From the NCBI GenBank assembly GCA_031400935.1, contig JANNQV010000025.1:1-64000 (forward strand): a stretch of DNA of 64,000 bases. The letters run 5' to 3'. This document shows, in pieces, positions 742 to 58,378 of the stretch. Each line of letters begins with the position of its first letter. Positions within the stretch are counted from its first letter, which is position 1. The notes beneath the pieces are model-generated. The model was given only the letters and a program-made list of their open reading frames with translations, ran no database searches and was not told the DNA's origin. Source of the DNA: Armatimonadota bacterium (lineage in GTDB: Bacteria > Armatimonadota > Fimbriimonadia > Fimbriimonadales > Fimbriimonadaceae). The translations under genes and the position numbers were made by a program.

Positions 742-840
742 CCCCTCACCCTCAGCTTCGCAGGTCCCTCTCCCCCACCAAGCTCCCCGATTTTTCCCTG
801 CGGCGGGGCAGGCGTTCCTCGCTGTGGGGGAGAGGGAACC
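742..840. repeat. C-rich/G-rich inverted repeat (CCTCTCCCCCAC ... GTGGGGGAGAGG); member of the GTGGGGAGAG dispersed motif family
   Basis: 12-bp inverted repeat at 767..778 and 824..835. The same GTGGGGAGAG core recurs at 42077..42090 and 51611..51622. It lies between the glgP stop and the TA operon start. Confidence 0.4.
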
Positions 841-3484: not shown

Positions 3485-3630
3485 AGGAGCGTTGGCAAGT
3501 TGCTTCCAAGTGGTCGGCATGTGGCTAGCATGTTGAAGCCATCGGTAGAGCAACTTGCCAACAACCTGCCTAACACTTGCCAACAACTTGCCGACAACCT
3601 GAAGACCACTTGCAAACAACATGCCGACGA
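3485..3630. repeat. Array of imperfect direct repeats TTGCCAACAAC (x4, spacing 22/11/22 bp) plus an inverted copy, in the divergent glgP/SPFH intergenic region
   Basis: Repeat starts at 3555, 3577, 3588 and 3610. Inverted copy GTTGGCAAGTTGC at 3491..3503 versus GCAACTTGCCAAC at 3550..3562. Confidence 0.5.
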
Positions 3631-9465: not shown

Positions 9466-10359
9466 ATGTCACGCGAAAACCATCAAGATATCCGAATCGG
9501 AACACTCGCCCCTTTGAGCAATGGTACCGACTATCTGCGCCAAATAATTCCTCATGGATTTGAGTCCTTTGAGCTTACGCTTTGGCAATACATTGGAGAG
9601 GTTGATCTTGATGCGTTTGCTGCTGAAATGCCTGATGTGCTTGGGGACGATGCGGTAATCAGTAGTTTGGGAATCTATGGAAACCCTCTCACTGATGAAA
9701 AAACAGCTGCGGATTGGGAAATTGTTATCAAGTCTTGCAAAAAATTTGGCTGTAAAGTAGTTTGCGGATTTGCAGGTGCGCTTGAGGATCGCCCTGTTGA
9801 TGAATCAATGCCGAAATTCAAAGAGGTTTTTGGAAAGATAGCCAAAGTCGCTGAAGGAGAAGGCGTAAAAATTGCTTTTGAAAACTGCGACATGGGCGGC
9901 TCTTGGAATCGGCCAGCTTGGAACATCGCTCACTCACCGAGAGCATGGGAAATGATGCTGAACGAAGTTCCTGGGGACACCCTTGGACTGGAGTGGGAGC
10001 CATGCCACCAAATGATCAGTCTCATTGATCCGATTGCCCAGCTTCGAAAATGGGCAAAGCGTGTTTATCATGTTCATGGAAAAGATGCGACGATTGCATG
10101 GGACGTGATCGAAAATTTGGGGATTCGGAGTGGGGAAGAGTACGTTTGGCATCGTACGCCTGGATTCGGGGACACAAACTGGACCGAAGTAATCTCGATT
10201 CTTCGCCAAAACGGATTTGAGGGAGCAATAGACATCGAAGGTTGGCATGACCCAATCTACCGAGATGAGCTCGAAATGACGGGTCAAGTCTATGCACTCG
10301 ACTACCTAAAGGCGTGTCGTGGCGGAGACTTTATTCCGAATCCAGTTTTGCAAAAGTAA
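9466..10359 (+). CDS. Sugar phosphate isomerase/epimerase (xylose isomerase-like TIM barrel)
   Basis: 297 aa with a TIM-barrel AP-endonuclease-2-like pattern (IAFENCDMGG, HVHGKD, IDIEGWHDP). Confidence 0.75.
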   Translation: MSRENHQDIRIGTLAPLSNGTDYLRQIIPHGFESFELTLWQYIGEVDLDAFAAEMPDVLGDDAVISSLGIYGNPLTDEKTAADWEIVIKSCKKFGCKVVCGFAGALEDRPVDESMPKFKEVFGKIAKVAEGEGVKIAFENCDMGGSWNRPAWNIAHSPRAWEMMLNEVPGDTLGLEWEPCHQMISLIDPIAQLRKWAKRVYHVHGKDATIAWDVIENLGIRSGEEYVWHRTPGFGDTNWTEVISILRQNGFEGAIDIEGWHDPIYRDELEMTGQVYALDYLKACRGGDFIPNPVLQK

Positions 10360-10364
10360 TGTGA

Positions 10365-10467
10365 CTTGCCCGTCCCGGGCAAGTGTGGCTCGACCGTCTC
10401 GGTTGAAGCCGCGCTACTCTGTTCCATGGGCGGAACGCCCATGCCAAGCTCGTCCGAAACTGACGAG
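10365..10467. repeat. Cluster of three GC hairpins with 3 to 7 nt loops between convergent genes
   Basis: CTTGCCCG-TCC-CGGGCAAG (10365..10383), CATGGGCG-GAA-CGCCCATG (10425..10443), GCTCGTC-CGAAACT-GACGAGC (10447..10467). They are the same GGGCG-NNN-CGCCC class as the hairpins inside dtd. Confidence 0.45.
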
Positions 10468-10477
10468 CCACGCAGCT

Positions 10478-11599
10478 CTATAACGCCTGCAGAAACTCCA
10501 GAAGTCGCTTTTGTTCCACAGGGCTAAGCTTCTGAAACGCTGCTTTGGAGTTTGAAGCCTCGCCTCCGTGCTTCAAAATTGCATCGAGAATCGTCGGTGC
10601 GCTACCATCGTGCCAATAAGGTCCTCCGAACACTCCCAACCCCCAAAGAGGCGCAGTGCGGTATTCGCCAATATCGTATTTGTCAATGGAAGTATGCAAA
10701 GGTTCGTTCGGCTGAATCTGGTGCGCTAAGAGGTCGGTATAGGCTTCAATCGTTTTCTTGTTTATTGCTGAAATTGAAGATTCGCCAGTTCGCAGACTTC
10801 CAACATGGCAAGTTTGGCAACCAACTTTAGTAAACAGTTTCTTGCCTTCCATAGCATTTGGAGTGAGCTTTGTTCGTGGAGGAGGGCCGAGCGTTTTGAT
10901 AAAAAACGACACGGCTTTAACTTGTCCAGCACCCAAACCGCCGGCAAAGTCTTCGCGCCCGTAAGGTTCAACTAGCATCCCAAGTTCACCCTTGAAAGCT
11001 TGAGTTACAAATAGATCAATACTCGAAACGTTTGGCTTCCACCCAAACTTTGCGGGCGAGCCGCCAAAAACGAGAGTTCGCCCTGAGATACCATCCTTAT
11101 TTTCGTCCGATGGATCAGCTAGTTTCGCGATCTCGACGTTTGGGACGGCCTCGAGCAAACCGAGGCCAAAAAGGGCAGGGGCACGCCGCGAAACTGCATC
11201 AGGAGGTCTAGAAGGCTCAACGAATCGCCGACTTTCATTCCGCTGAAGCCGGTGATACACTTTCAACCCAGTTCGGTCTTCGGAATCGGGAAGAAAGGTC
11301 ACAAAGGTTTTGGGGTCCTTGTTCGAACCGCCAAAATACGGCTCAAGATGGCATTTTGAACATTCGGTCTCATTGAAACCATTGCTCGACCGATCTGGGC
11401 GCCAAAGTTCCCAACGAAAAAGCCGCCTGCCACGAATATGGAGGTCCTCCTCGCTACTTGCCAGTCCCGGAATTGGATCGCCGATTTCAGCAGCGCTTGC
11501 AGCCAATGGGTATTCATCACTGACGCCAGTTCGAATAGTAGAGGCCGTATTGCCAATGAGGAACATATTAAGAACTGGCAGAATTGCGAGAAGATGCAT
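10478..11599 (-). CDS. Secreted di-heme c-type cytochrome (cytochrome c peroxidase / DUF1111-like oxidoreductase)
   Basis: Signal peptide. Two CxxCH motifs (CSKCH, CQTCH). The FGWKP motif resembles DUF1111 di-heme oxidoreductases. Confidence 0.6.
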   Translation of the reverse strand: MHLLAILPVLNMFLIGNTASTIRTGVSDEYPLAASAAEIGDPIPGLASSEEDLHIRGRRLFRWELWRPDRSSNGFNETECSKCHLEPYFGGSNKDPKTFVTFLPDSEDRTGLKVYHRLQRNESRRFVEPSRPPDAVSRRAPALFGLGLLEAVPNVEIAKLADPSDENKDGISGRTLVFGGSPAKFGWKPNVSSIDLFVTQAFKGELGMLVEPYGREDFAGGLGAGQVKAVSFFIKTLGPPPRTKLTPNAMEGKKLFTKVGCQTCHVGSLRTGESSISAINKKTIEAYTDLLAHQIQPNEPLHTSIDKYDIGEYRTAPLWGLGVFGGPYWHDGSAPTILDAILKHGGEASNSKAAFQKLSPVEQKRLLEFLQAL

Positions 11600-32176: not shown

Positions 32177-32399
32177 GGTAAGCAGTAAGCGGTTGGCGGA
32201 TAGCAGTTGGCGGAGGACAGGATTCGATTGGTGGTCTTTCATACTAAATAATTGAACTTGAAACAAAATTATTACTCAAGAGACCTTCCATCCGCGCTTT
32301 CCAATGATGAAGTTCCATTCCCAACCGCCAACTGCTATCCGCTTACTGCGAACTCCAAACCGCTAACTGACAACTGCCGCCCTAACTCCCCTGCCTGCC
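32177..32399. repeat. Inverted repeats GCGGTTGGCGGATAGCAGTTGGCGG / CCGCCAACTGCTATCCGC flanking about 110 bp, plus a CCGCTAACTGACAACTGCCGCC copy that encodes the last 10 codons and stop of the amidohydrolase
   Basis: Arms at 32189..32213 and 32325..32342. The nt 32363..32395 translate on the minus strand to GRGVRAAVVS-stop. Confidence 0.5.
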
Positions 32400-37053: not shown

Positions 37054-37189
37054 TCCCTTCCTTTGAAGGAAGGGCTGGGGATGGATGGCGCTAACTTCGA
37101 ACTCATACAGTTCTTCGAGACTAAGTGCCACTGAATGCAACTTGGGAAACACTTGCCATCCACCCTTAATCCCTCCTTCAAAGGAGGGA
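37054..37189. repeat. MITE-like 136-bp palindromic element with about 35-bp imperfect terminal inverted repeats (TCCCTTCCTTTGAAGGAAGGGCTGGGGATGGATGG ... CCATCCACCCTTAATCCCTCCTTCAAAGGAGGGA)
   Basis: The TIRs are read directly, and each TIR is itself a hairpin. A related fragment (CCCCTTCCTCCCTTGGGAGGAAGGGG + CTTTCGAACTC) lies at 48230..48267. Confidence 0.5.
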
Positions 37190-48266: not shown

Positions 48267-51002
48267 CTACTGCCTGACTGTAAACAGCACCTGATCAAAC
48301 CGGACTCGCCACTTTGCAATGACATCCGCCGCCCAGGGCTCCGCTGTGACAAGTGCTTTGATTTCCCGGTTCGCTGGCGAGACAAAGCGAGAGGGATCGC
48401 CGGTTGCGACAAATTCAAAGGTCGAATCGGTTGTTGTTGTAGGCCGGAAATCGAGTTCTTCCCACTGGTTGCTATTCCAATTGAACAGCCTTGTCCTTAG
48501 CCCGAGATTGCGCTGCGTGGCATTCACTTCCAGCTTAAATGCAAGATAGCTTACATTGCCATGAGGCGAGACCGATGTGAATTGAACGCCCATCGGAGTC
48601 ACAAGACCAGGAGCAGTGAAATCGCCCAAAATGTCCAGCTTGTCGTTATCGCTGGCATAGAGGCTTGAAAGCCTTCCGCTCATCAAATTGCCCCAAATGA
48701 TGTTGTAGGTTGTCGGCGAAAGCGGCTCGGTTACTGAATCGAGAATATCCGCCGAATAAACACCCCTTCCATGAGTTACCGCAAGGAGCTTCGTTCCGGT
48801 TACCCATCGAAGCTCTTCCACGGGCGCGATTCCAGGGCCGACGTTTTGCGTTGACCAATTTTGCCCGCCGTCGCTGGATGTGAACAATCCAACATCAGTC
48901 CCTACATAAATCCAATTGGAATTGATCGGGTGAGTGGTAACGGCACTGATGGGCGTGCTGGGCAAGTCGCCGCTAATGTCCGTCCAGTTCGTTCCGCCAT
49001 TCGTCGTCATCCAGAGGTTGTTTGATTCGTAACCCATGAATGAAACCAGAATTCGGTTTGTGTTGTTTGGGTCAATTCGAATCGAACCAACCCATCTGGC
49101 AGGCAGTTGGGTTGCTCCGTTGTCAACTCGTGTCCAAGTCGGCGTTACCGCCGCTCCGTTGATTGTTTTCCAAACTTCGCCGTTGTTGTATCCAACCCAA
49201 ATCAAGTTGCTGTTGCTTTGTGCGATTGTAAAGGTCGAGATATTCCAAGGCGGGTTTGTAGCAAAATGCGCCTCATCGTTCTTGGAGCGGCCATTTGGCC
49301 TTCCTCCTGGCTGAATCGTCGGCTTGATAGCGGTCCAAGTGGGCGTTCCAGCTTTGATGTTATTGGATCGCCAAAGGCTTCTTGCACCAACGAGCATTCG
49401 GTTCGCATTACTTGGATCAAGGCCAAAGTAAGCGATGAAGTTGCAAGTTGTGGAGCTTCCCGCGTCAGTAATTCCGCTGTAGCAATAGTTGTAGCTACCG
49501 CCAGCACCGCCTGTTGTGCTTCTTACGATCTGGGCGTAATAGATTCCGGCATACCAATAGTTAACATCTGTAGGATCGTATTCGCAATAGACGCCATCGC
49601 CGCCGAAGACCGTTCCCCAATCTTGAGGAAGACCTGTGTAGCGAATCGTTCCGTTATCTTGCAATCCAGCTATCATGTTGCCATTGGCGGGATTCATTAC
49701 GGCGCCATAAACCTGTGCAATCCCGAGATTGTGGTTCAGGTTGTTTACCGGATTTAGTGTGTGATCGTTAGAACGATAGATGCCTCCATCGCAACCCACA
49801 AAAATGCGGCGATTGGTTGTTCCATTAAAGTTCGGATCGGATACGATGGCATGCATGTCGGCATGAACCCCGTTGAGCCCTTGTGTAAAAGTTGCACCGG
49901 CATTTGCACTTCTGTACAAGTAGACGCCGCCTAAAATTAGATTGTTTGCGTTTGCAGGATCAACCCAAAGCACATTGTTATAGGCTGCATAGGTGCTGAT
50001 TCCCCCACCAGTAGTTGTAAGTGTGAAAGTTGAGCCGCCATTCACCGAACGGTAAATTTTGATCGCGCTGCCTACACTTGCAGCACAATAGACCGTGTTT
50101 GGGTTGCTCGGTGCATAACGAACTTCAGAGCGATGGGGATTGGGGAGACCCGTCGCTGCAGTCCAGCTTAAACCGCCGTTGATGGAAACTTTCACGCCGT
50201 CATCGTGGAAACCTGAAATTACTTTTTGTCCATCAGTAGGATGAAACTGGACGTCGTAAGCAAGTCCCAACGAAGTTCTAACCCAAGTCGTGCCTCCATC
50301 GGTGGATCGCCAAACTCCTGATCCTGTCGCCGCCAGCATGTTTTGAGAATTCGTCGGCGAAATCGCAATGCGGTTTACAAAATACCAATCTGGCGTATTC
50401 GTAAAGGCAATTTGGCTCCAAGAAGTTCCGCCATCGGTGGATTTGAAGATTCCGGCACCTCGAACGGCCGCCGTGTTTGATGTTCCTTCGACAGTTTCAA
50501 AGAAGCCTTCTCCCGTGCCGGCAAAAAGGGTGTTTGGATTCGTTTGATCAAGTGCCATGCAGCCGATTGGCATAACTGGCATGAAATCGTCCATTGGCAA
50601 CCACGAAACGCCTGCATCAATGGTTTTCCATATACCACCGCTAAGCCCGCCCGTCCACATGATGTTTGTGTTCGTTGGGTGGATCAGAATGCTTCGAACT
50701 CGTCCGCCCAAATTGCCGGGACCATGCCATGTCCAACCGCCTGGAAAAACGCCCGCTCCATCAGAAGGGTCTACGATAAGATCTCGTTGAGAAATGGCTA
50801 ATGCAATAGCTCCGTCGGGGACCTTGCCGTTTTCTGACATTCGCTTATCAGATCGAAAATTCGCCGCTGCTACTGGACTGTCGAAATCGGATTCAGCTTC
50901 AGTAATTTGCCTAGGTTCCATGGAAGAGCAGACAATCAAAATGCCGATACCAAATACGAAGTAAGACCAAGCCACCACATTCAATTTCATTGTTGTCACC
51001 AA
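48267..51002 (-). CDS. Secreted BNR/Asp-box repeat protein (sortilin/VPS10- or GH74-like beta-propellers) with a C-terminal module distantly resembling the 8227..9279 and 34040..35590 family
   Basis: At least six S-x-D-G-G-x-T-W-type repeats (STDGGTSW, STDGGTTW, SINGGLSW, SVNGGSTF, SSDGGQNW, TTNGGTNW). N-terminal signal/TM segment. Confidence 0.65.
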   Translation of the reverse strand: MVTTMKLNVVAWSYFVFGIGILIVCSSMEPRQITEAESDFDSPVAAANFRSDKRMSENGKVPDGAIALAISQRDLIVDPSDGAGVFPGGWTWHGPGNLGGRVRSILIHPTNTNIMWTGGLSGGIWKTIDAGVSWLPMDDFMPVMPIGCMALDQTNPNTLFAGTGEGFFETVEGTSNTAAVRGAGIFKSTDGGTSWSQIAFTNTPDWYFVNRIAISPTNSQNMLAATGSGVWRSTDGGTTWVRTSLGLAYDVQFHPTDGQKVISGFHDDGVKVSINGGLSWTAATGLPNPHRSEVRYAPSNPNTVYCAASVGSAIKIYRSVNGGSTFTLTTTGGGISTYAAYNNVLWVDPANANNLILGGVYLYRSANAGATFTQGLNGVHADMHAIVSDPNFNGTTNRRIFVGCDGGIYRSNDHTLNPVNNLNHNLGIAQVYGAVMNPANGNMIAGLQDNGTIRYTGLPQDWGTVFGGDGVYCEYDPTDVNYWYAGIYYAQIVRSTTGGAGGSYNYCYSGITDAGSSTTCNFIAYFGLDPSNANRMLVGARSLWRSNNIKAGTPTWTAIKPTIQPGGRPNGRSKNDEAHFATNPPWNISTFTIAQSNSNLIWVGYNNGEVWKTINGAAVTPTWTRVDNGATQLPARWVGSIRIDPNNTNRILVSFMGYESNNLWMTTNGGTNWTDISGDLPSTPISAVTTHPINSNWIYVGTDVGLFTSSDGGQNWSTQNVGPGIAPVEELRWVTGTKLLAVTHGRGVYSADILDSVTEPLSPTTYNIIWGNLMSGRLSSLYASDNDKLDILGDFTAPGLVTPMGVQFTSVSPHGNVSYLAFKLEVNATQRNLGLRTRLFNWNSNQWEELDFRPTTTTDSTFEFVATGDPSRFVSPANREIKALVTAEPWAADVIAKWRVRFDQVLFTVRQ

Positions 51003-52402: not shown

Positions 52403-53047
52403 TTAGGCTTGCGGTGCAGCCTCTTCGGTAACGGCATCAACTGTCGCAGTTTCATCTGCAACGGCATCTGCGCTGGCAGTTAGTTCGGCAATTGGTCCTT
52501 CAGGTGCAACAGCTTCAATATCGGTAGCGGTTTCGGCAGGTGCTTCCACAATTTCTTCAACAATGGCTTCAACTGGTGCTTCTGCAACTACTTCAGGTGC
52601 TGTTTCAACAACGGCTTCAACTGCAACGGTTTCAACCGGTGTTTCAACGACTTCTGCAACAACTGGCGCGGTTTCGGCAACAGGTTCGGGCTTTGCCGCT
52701 GTTTCGACTGGCGCAGCTTTAATGACCGATTGAACAGACATAGAAGATGTTCGCTTGTCGAGGAATTTGTAGGACTTCTTGGCTGAAGGACGCTGCTCGA
52801 AATACTTTTCGAGAATGCCGACGCGGTTCATGATGATCGCGGCAGTTTCAGAGGGCTGTGCGCCTTCTAAAAGCCAGTGAATCGCCCGATCTTCTTTGAT
52901 GTTGATTAGCTTCGGCTTTGTTACCGGGTTGTAGGTGCCGATGATCTCAATGAAGGCACCATCTCGGCCCGCCGTGCTTTTCGCAACAACTACACGATAA
53001 AAGGGACGGTGCTTGCTGCCCGACCTACGCAATCGAATTTTTACCAA
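52403..53047 (-). CDS. rpsP: 30S ribosomal protein S16 with an approximately 125-aa low-complexity acidic A/E/V/T-rich C-terminal extension
   Basis: MVKIRLRRSGSKHRPFYRVVVAKSTAGRDGAFIEIIGTYNP is canonical S16. The tail is encoded by degenerate GCTTCAAC/GTTTCAAC repeats. Confidence 0.85.
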   Translation of the reverse strand: MVKIRLRRSGSKHRPFYRVVVAKSTAGRDGAFIEIIGTYNPVTKPKLINIKEDRAIHWLLEGAQPSETAAIIMNRVGILEKYFEQRPSAKKSYKFLDKRTSSMSVQSVIKAAPVETAAKPEPVAETAPVVAEVVETPVETVAVEAVVETAPEVVAEAPVEAIVEEIVEAPAETATDIEAVAPEGPIAELTASADAVADETATVDAVTEEAAPQA

Positions 53048-54758: not shown

Positions 54759-57689
54759 ATGGTTGTCCTCACATTCGTCGCCGCTTTAATTCTTCCAAAT
54801 CCGGAACTGCAGCAAACTCCTCAGCTTCTTAAGAGGCTCAAAGCCCCTTACACAATGGCGGAGGATGTTAAGAAGCATTTCGCGCCGCAGATTGGAATGG
54901 ACACGACTGAACGACTTGCCGGGTATGAAAAGCGGCTCAAAATGGAGTCAGATTCGATAACCCAAGCTTTAACGTGGAGGTCAGTAGGCCCCGAAGTTCA
55001 AAGCGGGCGAGTCATCAGAGTTCTTTCAAATCCTAAAAATCCAGACGATATTTATGTTGCTTTCGCAACTGGTGGACTTTGGAGAACAAAAGATGGCGGA
55101 GTCAAATGGAAGGCGCTTTTTGAAAAGCAAAGTAGCTTTGGGATCGGCGATATGGCTCTAGGACCCGATGGCAAGACCATCTGGATCGGAACGGGCGAGC
55201 ACAACAGCCAACGAACTTCCTATCAGGGAACAGGCGTTTTCAAATCAACCGACAGCGGCGAAACCTGGCAGCACGTGGGTCTTGAAGACATCAATCACAC
55301 AGGTGCGATTTGCGTTAACCCTAAGAATGGGAACGACGTGGTCGTTGCTGGACTAGGACACCTGTATTCGAGCAATTCAGAGCGTGGCATATTCAAGACA
55401 TCCGACGGCGGAAAGACTTGGAACCAAACTCTGAAAATCAATGACCTTACCGGCGTCATTGACATGACAATGGACCCCAATGATCCGAAAACCATTTACG
55501 CATCTTCGTGGGATCGAGATCGAAGGGCATGGGATTTCCGAGATGCCGGACAAGCGACTGCAATTTACAAGTCGGCCAATTCAGGTTCAACTTGGCAGAA
55601 ACTCGATGGTGGGTTGCCATCTGGCGATTTAGGACGAATCGGATTAAGTGTCAGTGAATCTAACTCAAATGTAGTTTACGCATTCATTGACAACTGGAAC
55701 GCAGACCCAGACACGATCTACGACGACGAATACGCCCCATCGGGAACTTTGACTCCGTGGCGATTCCTTCAGTTGAAGGACGAGCAATTTAACCAAATTT
55801 CTAAAGAGGCTATTGAGAGATTCGTGACCCGCTACCTACCTGCAGGAACAAAGGCTGACGACATTATTCAAGGCGTCAAAGGCAAGAAGATGACATTGGA
55901 AGCCGTTGCTCAACTTATGGAAAAACGGAGCGCAAACGTTTTTGCAATTGAAAGAGTCACTCACCAAATATGGCGATCCGATGACAAGGGAAAGACTTGG
56001 AAGAAGACTCACGCCTACCGATTTGGGGTTCATGGAGGCTACTATTTTGGCGAAATCCGCGTGAATCCAACAAATCCAGACGATCTATGGACGCTTGGAA
56101 CTCTTTTGCTTCGATCTAAGGATGGCGGGAAGACCTGGAAGCGAACCGCGAATAGTGTGCATGTTGATTTTCACGACCTATGGTTTGATCCGCGAGATTC
56201 AAAACGAATGGTTGTCGGATGCGACGGAGGACCGTATTTCAGTGGTGATGACGGTGAAACTTGGCGGCATTGGAACAATTTGCCAGTAGGGCAAACCACA
56301 ACTCTAGCGGTTGACAACAAAGTGCCCTACAACATATATGTTGGCTTGCAAGACAACGGAACTTTGGTCGGACCAAGCACATACAACCCCGGGCGTACTT
56401 CGCTCAATGCGTGGAAAGCTATTGGTGGCGGAGATGGAAGCTGGATTGCTGTTGACCCGCGCGATGATGGAGACCTGGTTTATGTCGCCTCGCAATGGGG
56501 ATCGCATCAAGCGATCAATCAGAAAACGAACGAAAGATGGGGCTCTGCGGCTCGTGCTCAGCAAGGCCAGACGCCGCTTCGATATCAATGGATTTCGCCA
56601 CTGATTATTTCATCTCACCACCCAGATATTCTTTATTTGGGATCGCAGTTTGTACATCGCTCGATGAACAAGGGGCGTGCCTGGACGACGATCAGTCCAG
56701 ATTTGACCACAAACCGTGAGCAGGGCGATGTTCCGTACGCGACGATCAAAACTCTGGACGAAAGCCCATTCAAGTTCGGGCAATTGATTGCTGGAACGGA
56801 TGACGGAATCGTCAAACTAACAGTTGACCACGGCACAAATTGGACGGACATAACTCCTCCCGCGAAGAATAAGTGGGTTTCGAGAGTGCTGTTTTCGAAG
56901 TTTGAAACAAACACAGTTTACGTGACCCAAACCGGCTACCGAGAGGATGATTATAGGCCGTACGTTTGGCGGTCCACAGACCTTGGGAAGAACTGGACTT
57001 CCATAGCAAGCAACCTGCCATTGGAGTTTGTGAATTCGATAAAGGAAGACCCGCGAGAGAAGAATATTCTTTACTTGGCTACTGGAATCGGCGTGTTTCG
57101 AAGCACAGATACCGGTAACTCATGGGAAGTGCTTGGCGGAAATTTCCCACGATGTGCGGTTCACGATATCGTGATCCACCCGCGAGATTTGGAGATTGTC
57201 GCAGCGACTCATGGAAAGAGCGTTTGGGTTTTTGACCTCAAACAGCTTGACAAACTGACGGTTGATATTCAATCCAAACCAATCCATATGTTTGATTTAC
57301 CAACGATGGCGTTTACAGACACGTGGGCGATGCGGCGTTCGGAAAATTATGATGGCGAGCCTGCTCGAGAACCAACGGTTGGCAGTTGGCTCTGGCTTAA
57401 GGCAGGCGGAAAGGGAACGATTCGCATAAAAGACGCCGCTGGAAAGGTTTTGAAGGAGAAGTCCTTTGATGCACTCCGTGGGCTTCAGCAATGGACTATC
57501 GAACTCGTCCTTTATCCAGCGACTAGCAAATGGGCGATAGACAACAAGAATCGGCCCCGGACCACGATTGAAGAAATCCTCGCGGATCCATTTGGACCAG
57601 CTCGAGGGAAGTATCTGCCCGCGGGAGAGTATTCGGTCGAAATTTCGGTTGGCGATGTGACCCAAACGGTGAAGTGGAAGTTGCTTTAA
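54759..57689 (+). CDS. Secreted BNR/Asp-box repeat protein (sortilin/VPS10- or GH74-like)
   Basis: At least nine BNR-type repeats (KDGGVKW, TDSGETW, SDGGKTW, NSGSTW, DDKGKTW, KDGGKTW, DDGETW, TDLGKNW, TDTGNSW). N-terminal hydrophobic signal. Confidence 0.65.
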   Translation: MVVLTFVAALILPNPELQQTPQLLKRLKAPYTMAEDVKKHFAPQIGMDTTERLAGYEKRLKMESDSITQALTWRSVGPEVQSGRVIRVLSNPKNPDDIYVAFATGGLWRTKDGGVKWKALFEKQSSFGIGDMALGPDGKTIWIGTGEHNSQRTSYQGTGVFKSTDSGETWQHVGLEDINHTGAICVNPKNGNDVVVAGLGHLYSSNSERGIFKTSDGGKTWNQTLKINDLTGVIDMTMDPNDPKTIYASSWDRDRRAWDFRDAGQATAIYKSANSGSTWQKLDGGLPSGDLGRIGLSVSESNSNVVYAFIDNWNADPDTIYDDEYAPSGTLTPWRFLQLKDEQFNQISKEAIERFVTRYLPAGTKADDIIQGVKGKKMTLEAVAQLMEKRSANVFAIERVTHQIWRSDDKGKTWKKTHAYRFGVHGGYYFGEIRVNPTNPDDLWTLGTLLLRSKDGGKTWKRTANSVHVDFHDLWFDPRDSKRMVVGCDGGPYFSGDDGETWRHWNNLPVGQTTTLAVDNKVPYNIYVGLQDNGTLVGPSTYNPGRTSLNAWKAIGGGDGSWIAVDPRDDGDLVYVASQWGSHQAINQKTNERWGSAARAQQGQTPLRYQWISPLIISSHHPDILYLGSQFVHRSMNKGRAWTTISPDLTTNREQGDVPYATIKTLDESPFKFGQLIAGTDDGIVKLTVDHGTNWTDITPPAKNKWVSRVLFSKFETNTVYVTQTGYREDDYRPYVWRSTDLGKNWTSIASNLPLEFVNSIKEDPREKNILYLATGIGVFRSTDTGNSWEVLGGNFPRCAVHDIVIHPRDLEIVAATHGKSVWVFDLKQLDKLTVDIQSKPIHMFDLPTMAFTDTWAMRRSENYDGEPAREPTVGSWLWLKAGGKGTIRIKDAAGKVLKEKSFDALRGLQQWTIELVLYPATSKWAIDNKNRPRTTIEEILADPFGPARGKYLPAGEYSVEISVGDVTQTVKWKLL

Positions 57690-57692
57690 GAT

Positions 57693-57821
57693 TTGTTCGG
57701 GTTTGTTGTTAGTTATTGGTAATTAGTTGTTGAATTGGAAGTGCAACGAACCGCGAGCTGCTAACAACCAATAACTAACAGCGAATAACTAACAACCAAT
57801 AACCAAGAACCAATAACTATA
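57693..57821. repeat. Long imperfect inverted repeat (GTTTGTTGTTAGTTATTGGTAATTAGTTGTTG ... CTAACAACCAATAACTAACAGCGAATAACTAACAACCAATAACCAAGAACCAATAACTA) between convergent genes
   Basis: The arms are reverse-complementary (TTGTTAGTTATTGGT / ACCAATAACTAACAA). Member of the ACCAATAAC family. Probably a bidirectional terminator. Confidence 0.55.
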
Positions 57822-57829
57822 TTCCGCTC

Positions 57830-58378
57830 TCAACCTTCCACAATTATCGTAACTGGCCCTTCGTTGACAAGCGAAACCTGCATATCTGCCCCAAATCTGC
57901 CCGATTGGACATTGGGGCAGATTTGCTTTAGTTCGTTGAGCAATGAGTTGTATAGCTTTTCAGCTTGATCGTAAGGAGCAGACTCGACAAAGCTCGGCCT
58001 TCTGTTTTTCGAAGTTTCGCCGTAAATCGTAAAGTTTGAAATGCAAAGTATTCCTGCTTTTTTCTGTGGCTCGGGCGTCTCGCCCGAGAGGGGCGTATCC
58101 GTCTCGGACGTTGTCTGATCACCCTTGGGCGAGACGCCCAAGGCACTCATATCCGAGCCGAACATGACACACGAATCAGCCCAAGATAGGTTCATCTTCC
58201 CAGATTGATCATTGAAGATTCGAAGTCCCCATATCCGATCAGCTAGCTTTCTGGCATTGGCTTCAGTGTCGTCTCTGTGCGCAGCGACCAGGACTACAAG
58301 GCCGACACCGATGGCTCCGGTTGCTTCTCCATTTACCGAAACGCTGGCCTGAGAAACTCGCTGAACAACTGCTTTCAT
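57830..58378 (-). CDS. dtd: D-aminoacyl-tRNA deacylase carrying an in-frame insertion of about 35 aa
   Basis: MKAVVQRVSQASVSVNGEATGAIGVGLVVLVAA ... GKMNLS ... SNFTIYGETSKNRRPSF ... GRFGADMQVSLVNEGPVT are canonical Dtd. 182 aa against a typical 145 aa or so. Confidence 0.8.
   Translation of the reverse strand: MKAVVQRVSQASVSVNGEATGAIGVGLVVLVAAHRDDTEANARKLADRIWGLRIFNDQSGKMNLSWADSCVMFGSDMSALGVSPKGDQTTSETDTPLSGETPEPQKKAGILCISNFTIYGETSKNRRPSFVESAPYDQAEKLYNSLLNELKQICPNVQSGRFGADMQVSLVNEGPVTIIVEG
58068..58159. repeat. Double-hairpin palindromic element inserted in frame inside dtd
   Basis: CTCGGGCG-TCT-CGCCCGAG (58070..58088) and CCTTGGGCG-AGA-CGCCCAAGG (58123..58143) are inverted copies of each other, flanked by GGCTCGG / CCGAGCC. 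They encode the extra Dtd residues. Confidence 0.55.

Follow-up and report, generated by a model that had tools for sequence, protein, structure and literature searches.

A REP-type double hairpin carried in frame by the dtd gene of an Armatimonadota bacterium, probably as a tolerated passenger

Bacterial genomes contain short dispersed palindromic repeats known as REPs. A genome typically carries tens to hundreds of them, for the most part outside genes and near 3' gene ends, and their cognate RAYT (a Y1/HUH transposase) is encoded by a gene flanked by the repeats. Bacterial MITEs are defined by terminal inverted repeats of 15-30 bp and by target-site duplications. GTAG-tagged REPs were catalogued by Di Nocera et al. 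(PMC3733652), who describe stems of 6-9 bp, dimers whose units lie 20-100 bp apart, and the head GTGG in O. terrae (GTAG-20 REPs). These repeats typically adjoin the 3' ends of convergent ORFs, and many dimers lie in frame inside genes, where they encode 20-30 amino acids. Armatimonadota receive no mention in that survey.

Three further systems bring palindromes into or near coding sequence. The RPEs of Rickettsia, classed in the same survey as CGTC-tagged REPs, are palindromic repeats found in frame in housekeeping genes, many per genome; they are translated and presumably tolerated as segments on the protein surface. RPE-4 and RPE-6 have a CGTC tag, stems of 8-9 bp that start with AT, loops of 4-5 nt and a CCA-like tail (PMC3733652). 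In the mitochondria of Nematomorpha, long and perfect inverted repeats lie inside translated genes, with arms that encode conserved regions (PMC6649704). Lastly, template switching is documented to create and maintain hairpins; its products have near-perfect reverse-complement arms and compensated changes, without single-sided intermediates (PMC8794818).

Here we analyse a window of 64,000 nt from an Armatimonadota bacterium (assembly GCA_031400935.1, contig JANNQV010000025.1, positions 1-64,000, forward strand). The tRNA-proofreading gene dtd in this window carries a GC-rich double hairpin within its reading frame. We consider the insert to be a copy of a short dispersed REP-type palindromic repeat, present in frame as a tolerated passenger rather than as a functional domain, a reading to which we assign a probability of about 0.6.

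A sequence-only reading of the window had described a 182-aa dtd ORF whose surplus residues, between GKMNL and SNFT, are encoded by two GC hairpins with 3-nt loops that are inverted copies of each other. The ORF list, the PF02580 match and an alignment to E. coli Dtd confirm its coordinates and sequences, and the hairpins are as described. The features of the two loci discussed below are as follows.

57830-58378, minus strand: dtd ORF (D-aminoacyl-tRNA deacylase), 182 aa, with the insert between GKMNL and SNFT.
58063-58159, plus strand: inserted double-hairpin element (REP dimer, REPIN-like), homologous to 10360-10457 by MAFFT, alignment score and covariance model.
58065-58088, plus strand: REP unit 1, head (T)GTGG and hairpin CTCGGGCG-TCT-CGCCCGAG; fits the unit pattern with 2 mismatches.
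58099-58107, plus strand: central conserved motif CCGTCTCGG, a partial unit; the 9-mer is also at the homologous position 10394.
58123-58146, minus strand: REP unit 2, inverted, reading GTGC-CTTGGGCG-TCT-CGCCCAAGG on the minus strand; reverse-strand covariance match of 44.5 bits.
10360-10473, plus strand: intergenic homolog cluster of three GTGG/GTGA-headed units, 48 kb from dtd; homologous over 10360-10457.
10360-10384 (plus strand), 10384-10402 (plus strand) and 10448-10472 (minus strand): the intergenic units.
10425-10443: extra intergenic hairpin, CATGGGCG-GAA-CGCCCATG.

The protein belongs to the Dtd family by its profile match (PF02580), its 7993 homologs, its SxFT, RPSF and GPV motifs and its predicted fold. 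The names that the homologs bear suggest a Fimbriimonadales-like member of the Armatimonadota as the source. Against E. coli Dtd (1JKE), query residues 2-65 and 107-178 align, and query residues 66-106 stand opposite just four E. coli residues (66-69 of 1JKE), from which we estimate a surplus of about 37 aa. The insert, translated from the minus strand, supplies about 31 of these (SDMSALGVSPKGDQTTSETDTPLSGETPEP). The reading frame stays open through the insert, whose length is divisible by three, and the family-invariant residues are all retained, including N115 F116 T117, R127 P128 S129 F130 and G174 P175 V176. In the AlphaFold2 model, 109 core residues have pLDDT values above 90 and insert residues 81-103 fall below 50; Foldseek aligns the model to 1jke_A with an E-value of 1.7e-17, a TM score of 0.94 and an rmsd of 1.7 Å. 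Because the residues are intact, the core is confidently predicted and the fold resembles 1JKE, the gene appears functional, with an insert that resembles a floppy, disordered surface loop. The model thus agrees with the earlier expectation that the extra residues form a solvent-exposed loop.

A second, smaller inverted repeat lies within dtd near its 3' end, in conserved coding sequence (57880-57926, GCATATCTGCCCCAA / TTGGGGCAGATTTGC; arms of 15-16 nt, 88-93% complementary). Just 3' of the dtd stop and before a convergent sortilin-like ORF there is an AT-rich inverted repeat at 57702-57819, which may be a bidirectional terminator; its arms, of 23-31 nt and with 80-84% complementarity, repeat a (TTAGTTATTGG)-like motif and its complement. 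The SRP54-S16-KH-RimM cluster beside dtd has on either side one of two large paralogous Sortilin/Vps10-BNR proteins (54759-57689, 976 aa; 48267-51002, about 907-911 aa). Ribosomal protein S16 is usually about 80-90 aa long; the homolog here (52403-53047, minus strand) has 214 aa and presumably a long extension.

The two dtd hairpins, CTCGGGCG-TCT-CGCCCGAG at 58070-58088 and CCTTGGGCG-AGA-CGCCCAAGG at 58123-58143, are perfect and are reverse complements of each other. The inverted units to which they belong are 35 nt apart and could also pair over the longer range, in a 23-nt stem that joins 58066-58088 to 58124-58146 with 87% complementarity. Folded as RNA, the segment 58040-58185 reaches -65.4 kcal/mol (z = -4.0), a stability that no shuffle out of 200 attains. 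The element also contains internal partial duplications, with CGTCTCG/CGAGACG occurring three times. An Rfam search of the insert returned no family; its sole match was a sub-threshold chance miRNA hairpin. The hairpins could in principle be read as a terminator; there is no T tract behind them on either strand, and we discarded this idea.

The same hairpin class had been reported between genes at 10365-10443, and the resemblance proves to be wider: comparison of the two sequences indicates that the insert and the intergenic cluster are homologous over 10360-10457. The cluster fills the whole 118-nt gap between the convergent ORFs 9466-10359 (plus) and 10478-11599 (minus). The first of these, of the AP-endonuclease-2 family, has a stop codon TAA that directly abuts the TGTG of the first unit; the second, of the DHOR family, ends 5 nt beyond the last unit.

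In a MAFFT alignment of 58060-58162 with 10358-10463, 60 of about 100 columns are identical and there is a single gap, of 6 nt. A sensitive same-strand local alignment (+3/-2 scoring with stiff gap costs) gives 58060-58162 against 10360-10457 a score of 87, whereas the runner-up site in the window scores 49 and 120 dinucleotide shuffles average 55 (sd 4.5, maximum 68). Scans with permissive gaps rank the intergenic site first in three of four schemes by a small margin (54 versus 49), and with +2/-3 scoring and gap costs of -5/-2, a scheme blind to identities of about 60%, it does no better than shuffles. The homology can also be followed through its landmarks. Four anchors are colinear in both copies: TGTG with hairpin 1, then CCGTCTCGG, then hairpin 2, then TCCGA, at spacings of 36/33, 28/34 and 25/25 nt. 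The 9-mer CCGTCTCGG occurs within the window at 10394 and 58099 only, and these two occurrences are aligned with each other by MAFFT. The hairpin 1 stem differs between the copies in three places, all three compensated with no pair broken, and 100% of its cells are paired; sliding the partner lowers this share to 29-54%. The 19-nt unit TGTGGCTCGNCCGTCTCGG, allowing at most 3 mismatches, has four matches in the window where 0.01 would be expected: three intergenic (two direct, one inverted) and one in dtd. The sequence GGGCGnnnCGCCC is found in the window at 10428, 58073 and 58127 only, against an expectation from composition of about 0.04.

Further copies were sought in about 73 kb of the source genome, that is, in the window and a contig extension of about 9 kb (L215). 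A covariance model built from both copies scores only these two loci in the window, and no third copy was found in the scan of the window and the extension. A six-frame composite peptide of the element, searched against 5.8 billion protein clusters, recovered Dtd itself only; such a search misses copies as diverged as the intergenic one and speaks to near-identical copies in frame. The pattern GGCTCGNNCGTCTCG N15-45 GGCGNNNCGCC, scanned over genome contigs, gave no Armatimonadota record among the matches listed, which are single chance matches in GC-rich genomes.

The closest ortholog (L002/P0002) has 158 aa, is 79% identical in Dtd over the aligned residues and sits in a syntenic gene neighbourhood. 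Its loop DNA contains no palindrome (fold z = +0.2) and no repeat unit, which speaks for a lineage-specific insert. With the element removed (about 94 nt, about 31 aa), the window's Dtd would keep 14 loop residues, compared with 18-20 in L002 and L003, which fits insertion into a loop that was already slightly extended. An objection from length, that the gene has gained 72 nt over its sister ortholog and the element measures 92 nt, was dropped once the borders of the element had been set by homology. Part of the right arm could be ancestral, since the residues G-E-T..P beside it are also present in the loop of the sister ortholog (GETLLP).

An assembly error at a repeat, or a decaying dtd pseudogene in a metagenome-assembled genome, might also produce a gene of this shape. 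The dtd copy is known only from the NCBI MAG and Logan SRR20217205, assemblies that possibly derive from one set of reads. An artefact or a dying gene would hardly be expected to keep an open frame, a length that is a multiple of three and every invariant residue; the flanks are moreover syntenic with those of L002, and an independent assembly of a different sample, SRR20217196, shows the related intergenic copy without a single base difference. We regard this explanation as extremely improbable.

To what class of element does the insert belong? Judged by its anatomy, it is a REP dimer or cluster built of 19-24 nt GTGG-headed units, and REPIN-like. The hairpin stems measure 8, 9, 8, 8 and 7 bp (at 58070-58088, 58123-58143, 10364-10384, 10425-10443 and 10448-10468, respectively). 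Of the five heads, three read GTGG (58066, 10385 and, on the minus strand, 10471), one GTGA (10361) and one GTGC (58146, minus strand); GTAG never occurs. These heads are compatible with the GTGG variant of O. terrae, though too few to define a consensus. Units that combine a 4-nt head with a GC-rich hairpin (stem of 7-9 bp) resemble in build the REPs of the GTAG superfamily. As in REPINs and BIMEs, inverted units lie 20-100 nt apart and can fold as one larger hairpin. The cluster abuts the 3' ends of two convergent ORFs, a placement typical of GTAG REPs, and the copy in dtd, like the catalogued intragenic dimers, is in frame and encodes about 30 aa. Since this anatomy matches published GTAG/GTGG REPs, which are also known in frame, the element appears to be a new member of the REP superfamily and not a new type of element. 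The earlier suggestion that elements of this type had never been described is therefore not upheld: GTAG/GTGG REPs and their in-frame dimers of 20-30 aa were already on record (PMC3733652).

In other respects the element departs from a typical REP. It is present at 2 loci, as 4-6 units within about 73 kb, where typical REPs number tens to hundreds of copies; no RAYT gene turned up in the available sequence, and identity between the copies is only about 60%. A Pfam scan of 20 window ORFs, like the gene calls of L001, L215 and L216, revealed no tyrosine transposase. The low number of loci, the absence of a transposase from these ORFs and gene calls, and the absence of a visible target-site duplication all count against the REP reading.

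The insert had also been likened to the RPEs of Rickettsia and to Correia-like MITEs. The first likeness holds as to lifestyle, in that a palindromic repeat sits in frame in a housekeeping gene and would be tolerated there. It does not extend to structure: a terminal CGTC tag and a CCA tail are both missing, CT or CG opens the stems, and the loops have 3 nt; and RPEs occupy many genes per genome, whereas here one gene and one intergenic locus are involved in about 73 kb. We rejected membership of the CGTC-REP/RPE group, as CGTC occurs only inside a loop and stem (GGGCGTCTCGCCC) and the features of stem and loop differ. Like Correia/NEMIS and other MITEs, the element is a small non-coding palindromic insertion of about 100 nt. 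The 7-nt bracket that had been proposed to delimit it is present (GGCTCGG at 58068, CCGAGCC at 58153); unlike the terminal repeats of a MITE, its positions in one copy do not correspond to those in the other. Neither copy shows a target-site duplication, nor do they have a visible terminal repeat in common, and a Correia-type MITE was set aside on these grounds. The Nematomorpha share with this locus the presence of inverted repeats inside a translated gene; there the arms encode conserved regions, and in dtd the palindrome does not reach beyond a non-conserved insert predicted to be disordered.

The best account of these observations is that a REP-type copy inserted into the sole Dtd loop that tolerates extra residues, or was captured there. 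The frame would have been kept open, so that about 94 nt of element would be read as about 31 unstructured, solvent-exposed residues with the catalytic core unchanged. Mobility would presumably come from single-strand transposition by a tyrosine transposase of the RAYT/IS200-IS605 type, as has been proposed for REPs. With an identity of only about 60% between the copies, there is no sign of recent transposition. On this account the element would be mobile, the rest of the genome would be expected to hold many further copies and the insert would be neutral. The central claim of the sequence-only reading, that a repeated palindromic element is carried in frame as a tolerated surface loop, agrees with the second copy, the sister gene that lacks the element, the intact core and the open frame.

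The dtd loop could instead have grown in place, by local duplication (template switching or quasipalindrome extension) from a short seed such as the G-E-T-P codons, with no foreign element involved. The resemblance to template-switch products is real, both in the near-perfect reverse-complement arms and in the compensated changes. The threefold CGTCTCG/CGAGACG duplication within the insert suggests local copying, and G-E-T..P is common to the sister loop, although this match comprises three residues only in a fast-evolving loop. The window is rich in long intergenic inverted repeats that have tandem repeats for arms, and inserts in the same loop of other Armatimonadota dtd genes, with mirrored tandem 9-mers ((GGTGAGAAT)n against (ATTCTCAC)n), look like local expansions. 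Both these inserts and the element's own duplications weigh against the REP reading. Template switching, however, is local and by itself yields no homologous copy 48 kb away, and growth in place leaves the significant, colinear and structure-compensated homology with the intergenic cluster unexplained. We find an origin wholly in place unlikely; later remodelling of an inserted REP element by local template-switch events is plausible.

Other long inverted repeats in the window (765-837, 3490-3629, 32177-32361 and 37056-37188) are intergenic, have arms of 14-46 nt and are unrelated to the dtd element. Several have tandem-like repeat arms, one G+T-rich and the other A+C-rich. The repeat at 32177-32361 occupies the entire gap between two ORFs, and that at 3490-3629, with repeated ACTTGCCAACAAC motifs, lies in a divergent promoter region. 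The same architecture is seen in a relative (L009:6533-6710), where the entire relA-dtd gap is an inverted repeat with arms (GATTTACG)n / (CGTAAATC)n, 26 nt long, 92% complementary and 126 nt apart.

Among the relatives examined, every long insert in the GKMNL-SNFT loop is hairpin-forming and is unrelated in sequence to the window element. These inserts are listed here with their positions in each locus.

L006/P0010, 5594-5655: 21-nt arms, fold z -3.8.
L213/P0122, 4303-4374: stem of about 40 bp, fold z -7.5.
L211/P0121, 9097-9236: the largest, an 85-aa insert (294 nt) forming one giant hairpin, fold z -3.7.
L009/P0056, 6920-7042: fold z -2.5.
L007/P0030, 10235-10296: fold z -1.8 to -2.1.
L214/P0149, 1981-2006: perfect 12-bp hairpin, fold z -1.5.

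Short inserts in the loop have fold z values near 0. As a control we folded 146 windows from 30 insert-less dtd genes, which have a mean z of -0.28 and a minimum of -2.86, with 2% at or below -2.5; the 80 dtd loci obtained in a metagenome search for related loci, nearly all of them insert-less, served as a control set. The genes P0030, P0056, P0121 and P0122 have a homologous insert in common, the 5' arm made of (GGTGAGAAT)-like repeats (Gly-Glu-Asn) and the 3' arm of their complement (Gln-Leu-Ser). In this clade pairing takes in 84.5% of cells, a share that falls to 44-57% once the partner is slid, and there are 10 double-change pairs where sliding gives 2-6; with four sequences, the apparent compensation is only suggestive. 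Copies of the other lineages' inserts were sought in their own flanks of 5-20 kb and none was found, and a hairpin family CCCCTCTCCCC/GGGGAGAGGGG sought across the loci matched L214 only.

One may ask whether such hairpins are kept for a purpose, acting in cis on mRNA stability, processing or translational pausing, or through a function of the loop in the protein, so that their recurrence reflects selection. At least four unrelated sequence forms of hairpin insert occupy the same loop (z from -1.5 to -7.5), and pairing is kept across the divergence of P0030, P0056, P0121 and P0122, as selection would predict. The sister ortholog and most relatives nevertheless do without the structure, and almost every one of the 80 dtd loci from metagenomes has a length of 432 nt. 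The window insert is predicted to be disordered, has no Rfam family and lacks a terminator-like T tract. Tolerance of the loop, combined with mutation that generates or inserts hairpins, would explain the recurrence without any function. A selected role seems to us improbable, and we prefer the reading of the window insert as a REP-type passenger.

The recurrence itself can be read in two ways: either this is the sole Dtd loop in which insertions survive, and hairpin-making processes supply most of them, or the hairpins are maintained. A broader proposition, that the GKMNL-SNFT loop is a recurrent site for the landing or growth of hairpin-forming DNA across Armatimonadota, with at least four unrelated palindromic inserts of 28-294 nt, we put forward only tentatively and think rather unlikely. 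If it were true, there would be selection on nucleic-acid structure in a coding region, or the palindromes would be self-maintaining in-frame insertions; in the latter case, capture of a REP followed by template-switch homogenisation would be shaping protein loops.

In-frame insertion of palindromic or REP sequences is, as an event, already known from other bacteria. The dtd gene described here offers a clean case beyond Proteobacteria and Rickettsia, in which a REP-type repeat is translated within an essential-type housekeeping enzyme and one disordered Dtd loop absorbs about 30 extra residues. If the recurrence in other Armatimonadota holds, the dtd loop would be a tractable system for learning how palindromic DNA enters, persists and grows in coding sequence, and for testing whether such elements partly drive the variation in loop length among bacterial proteins.
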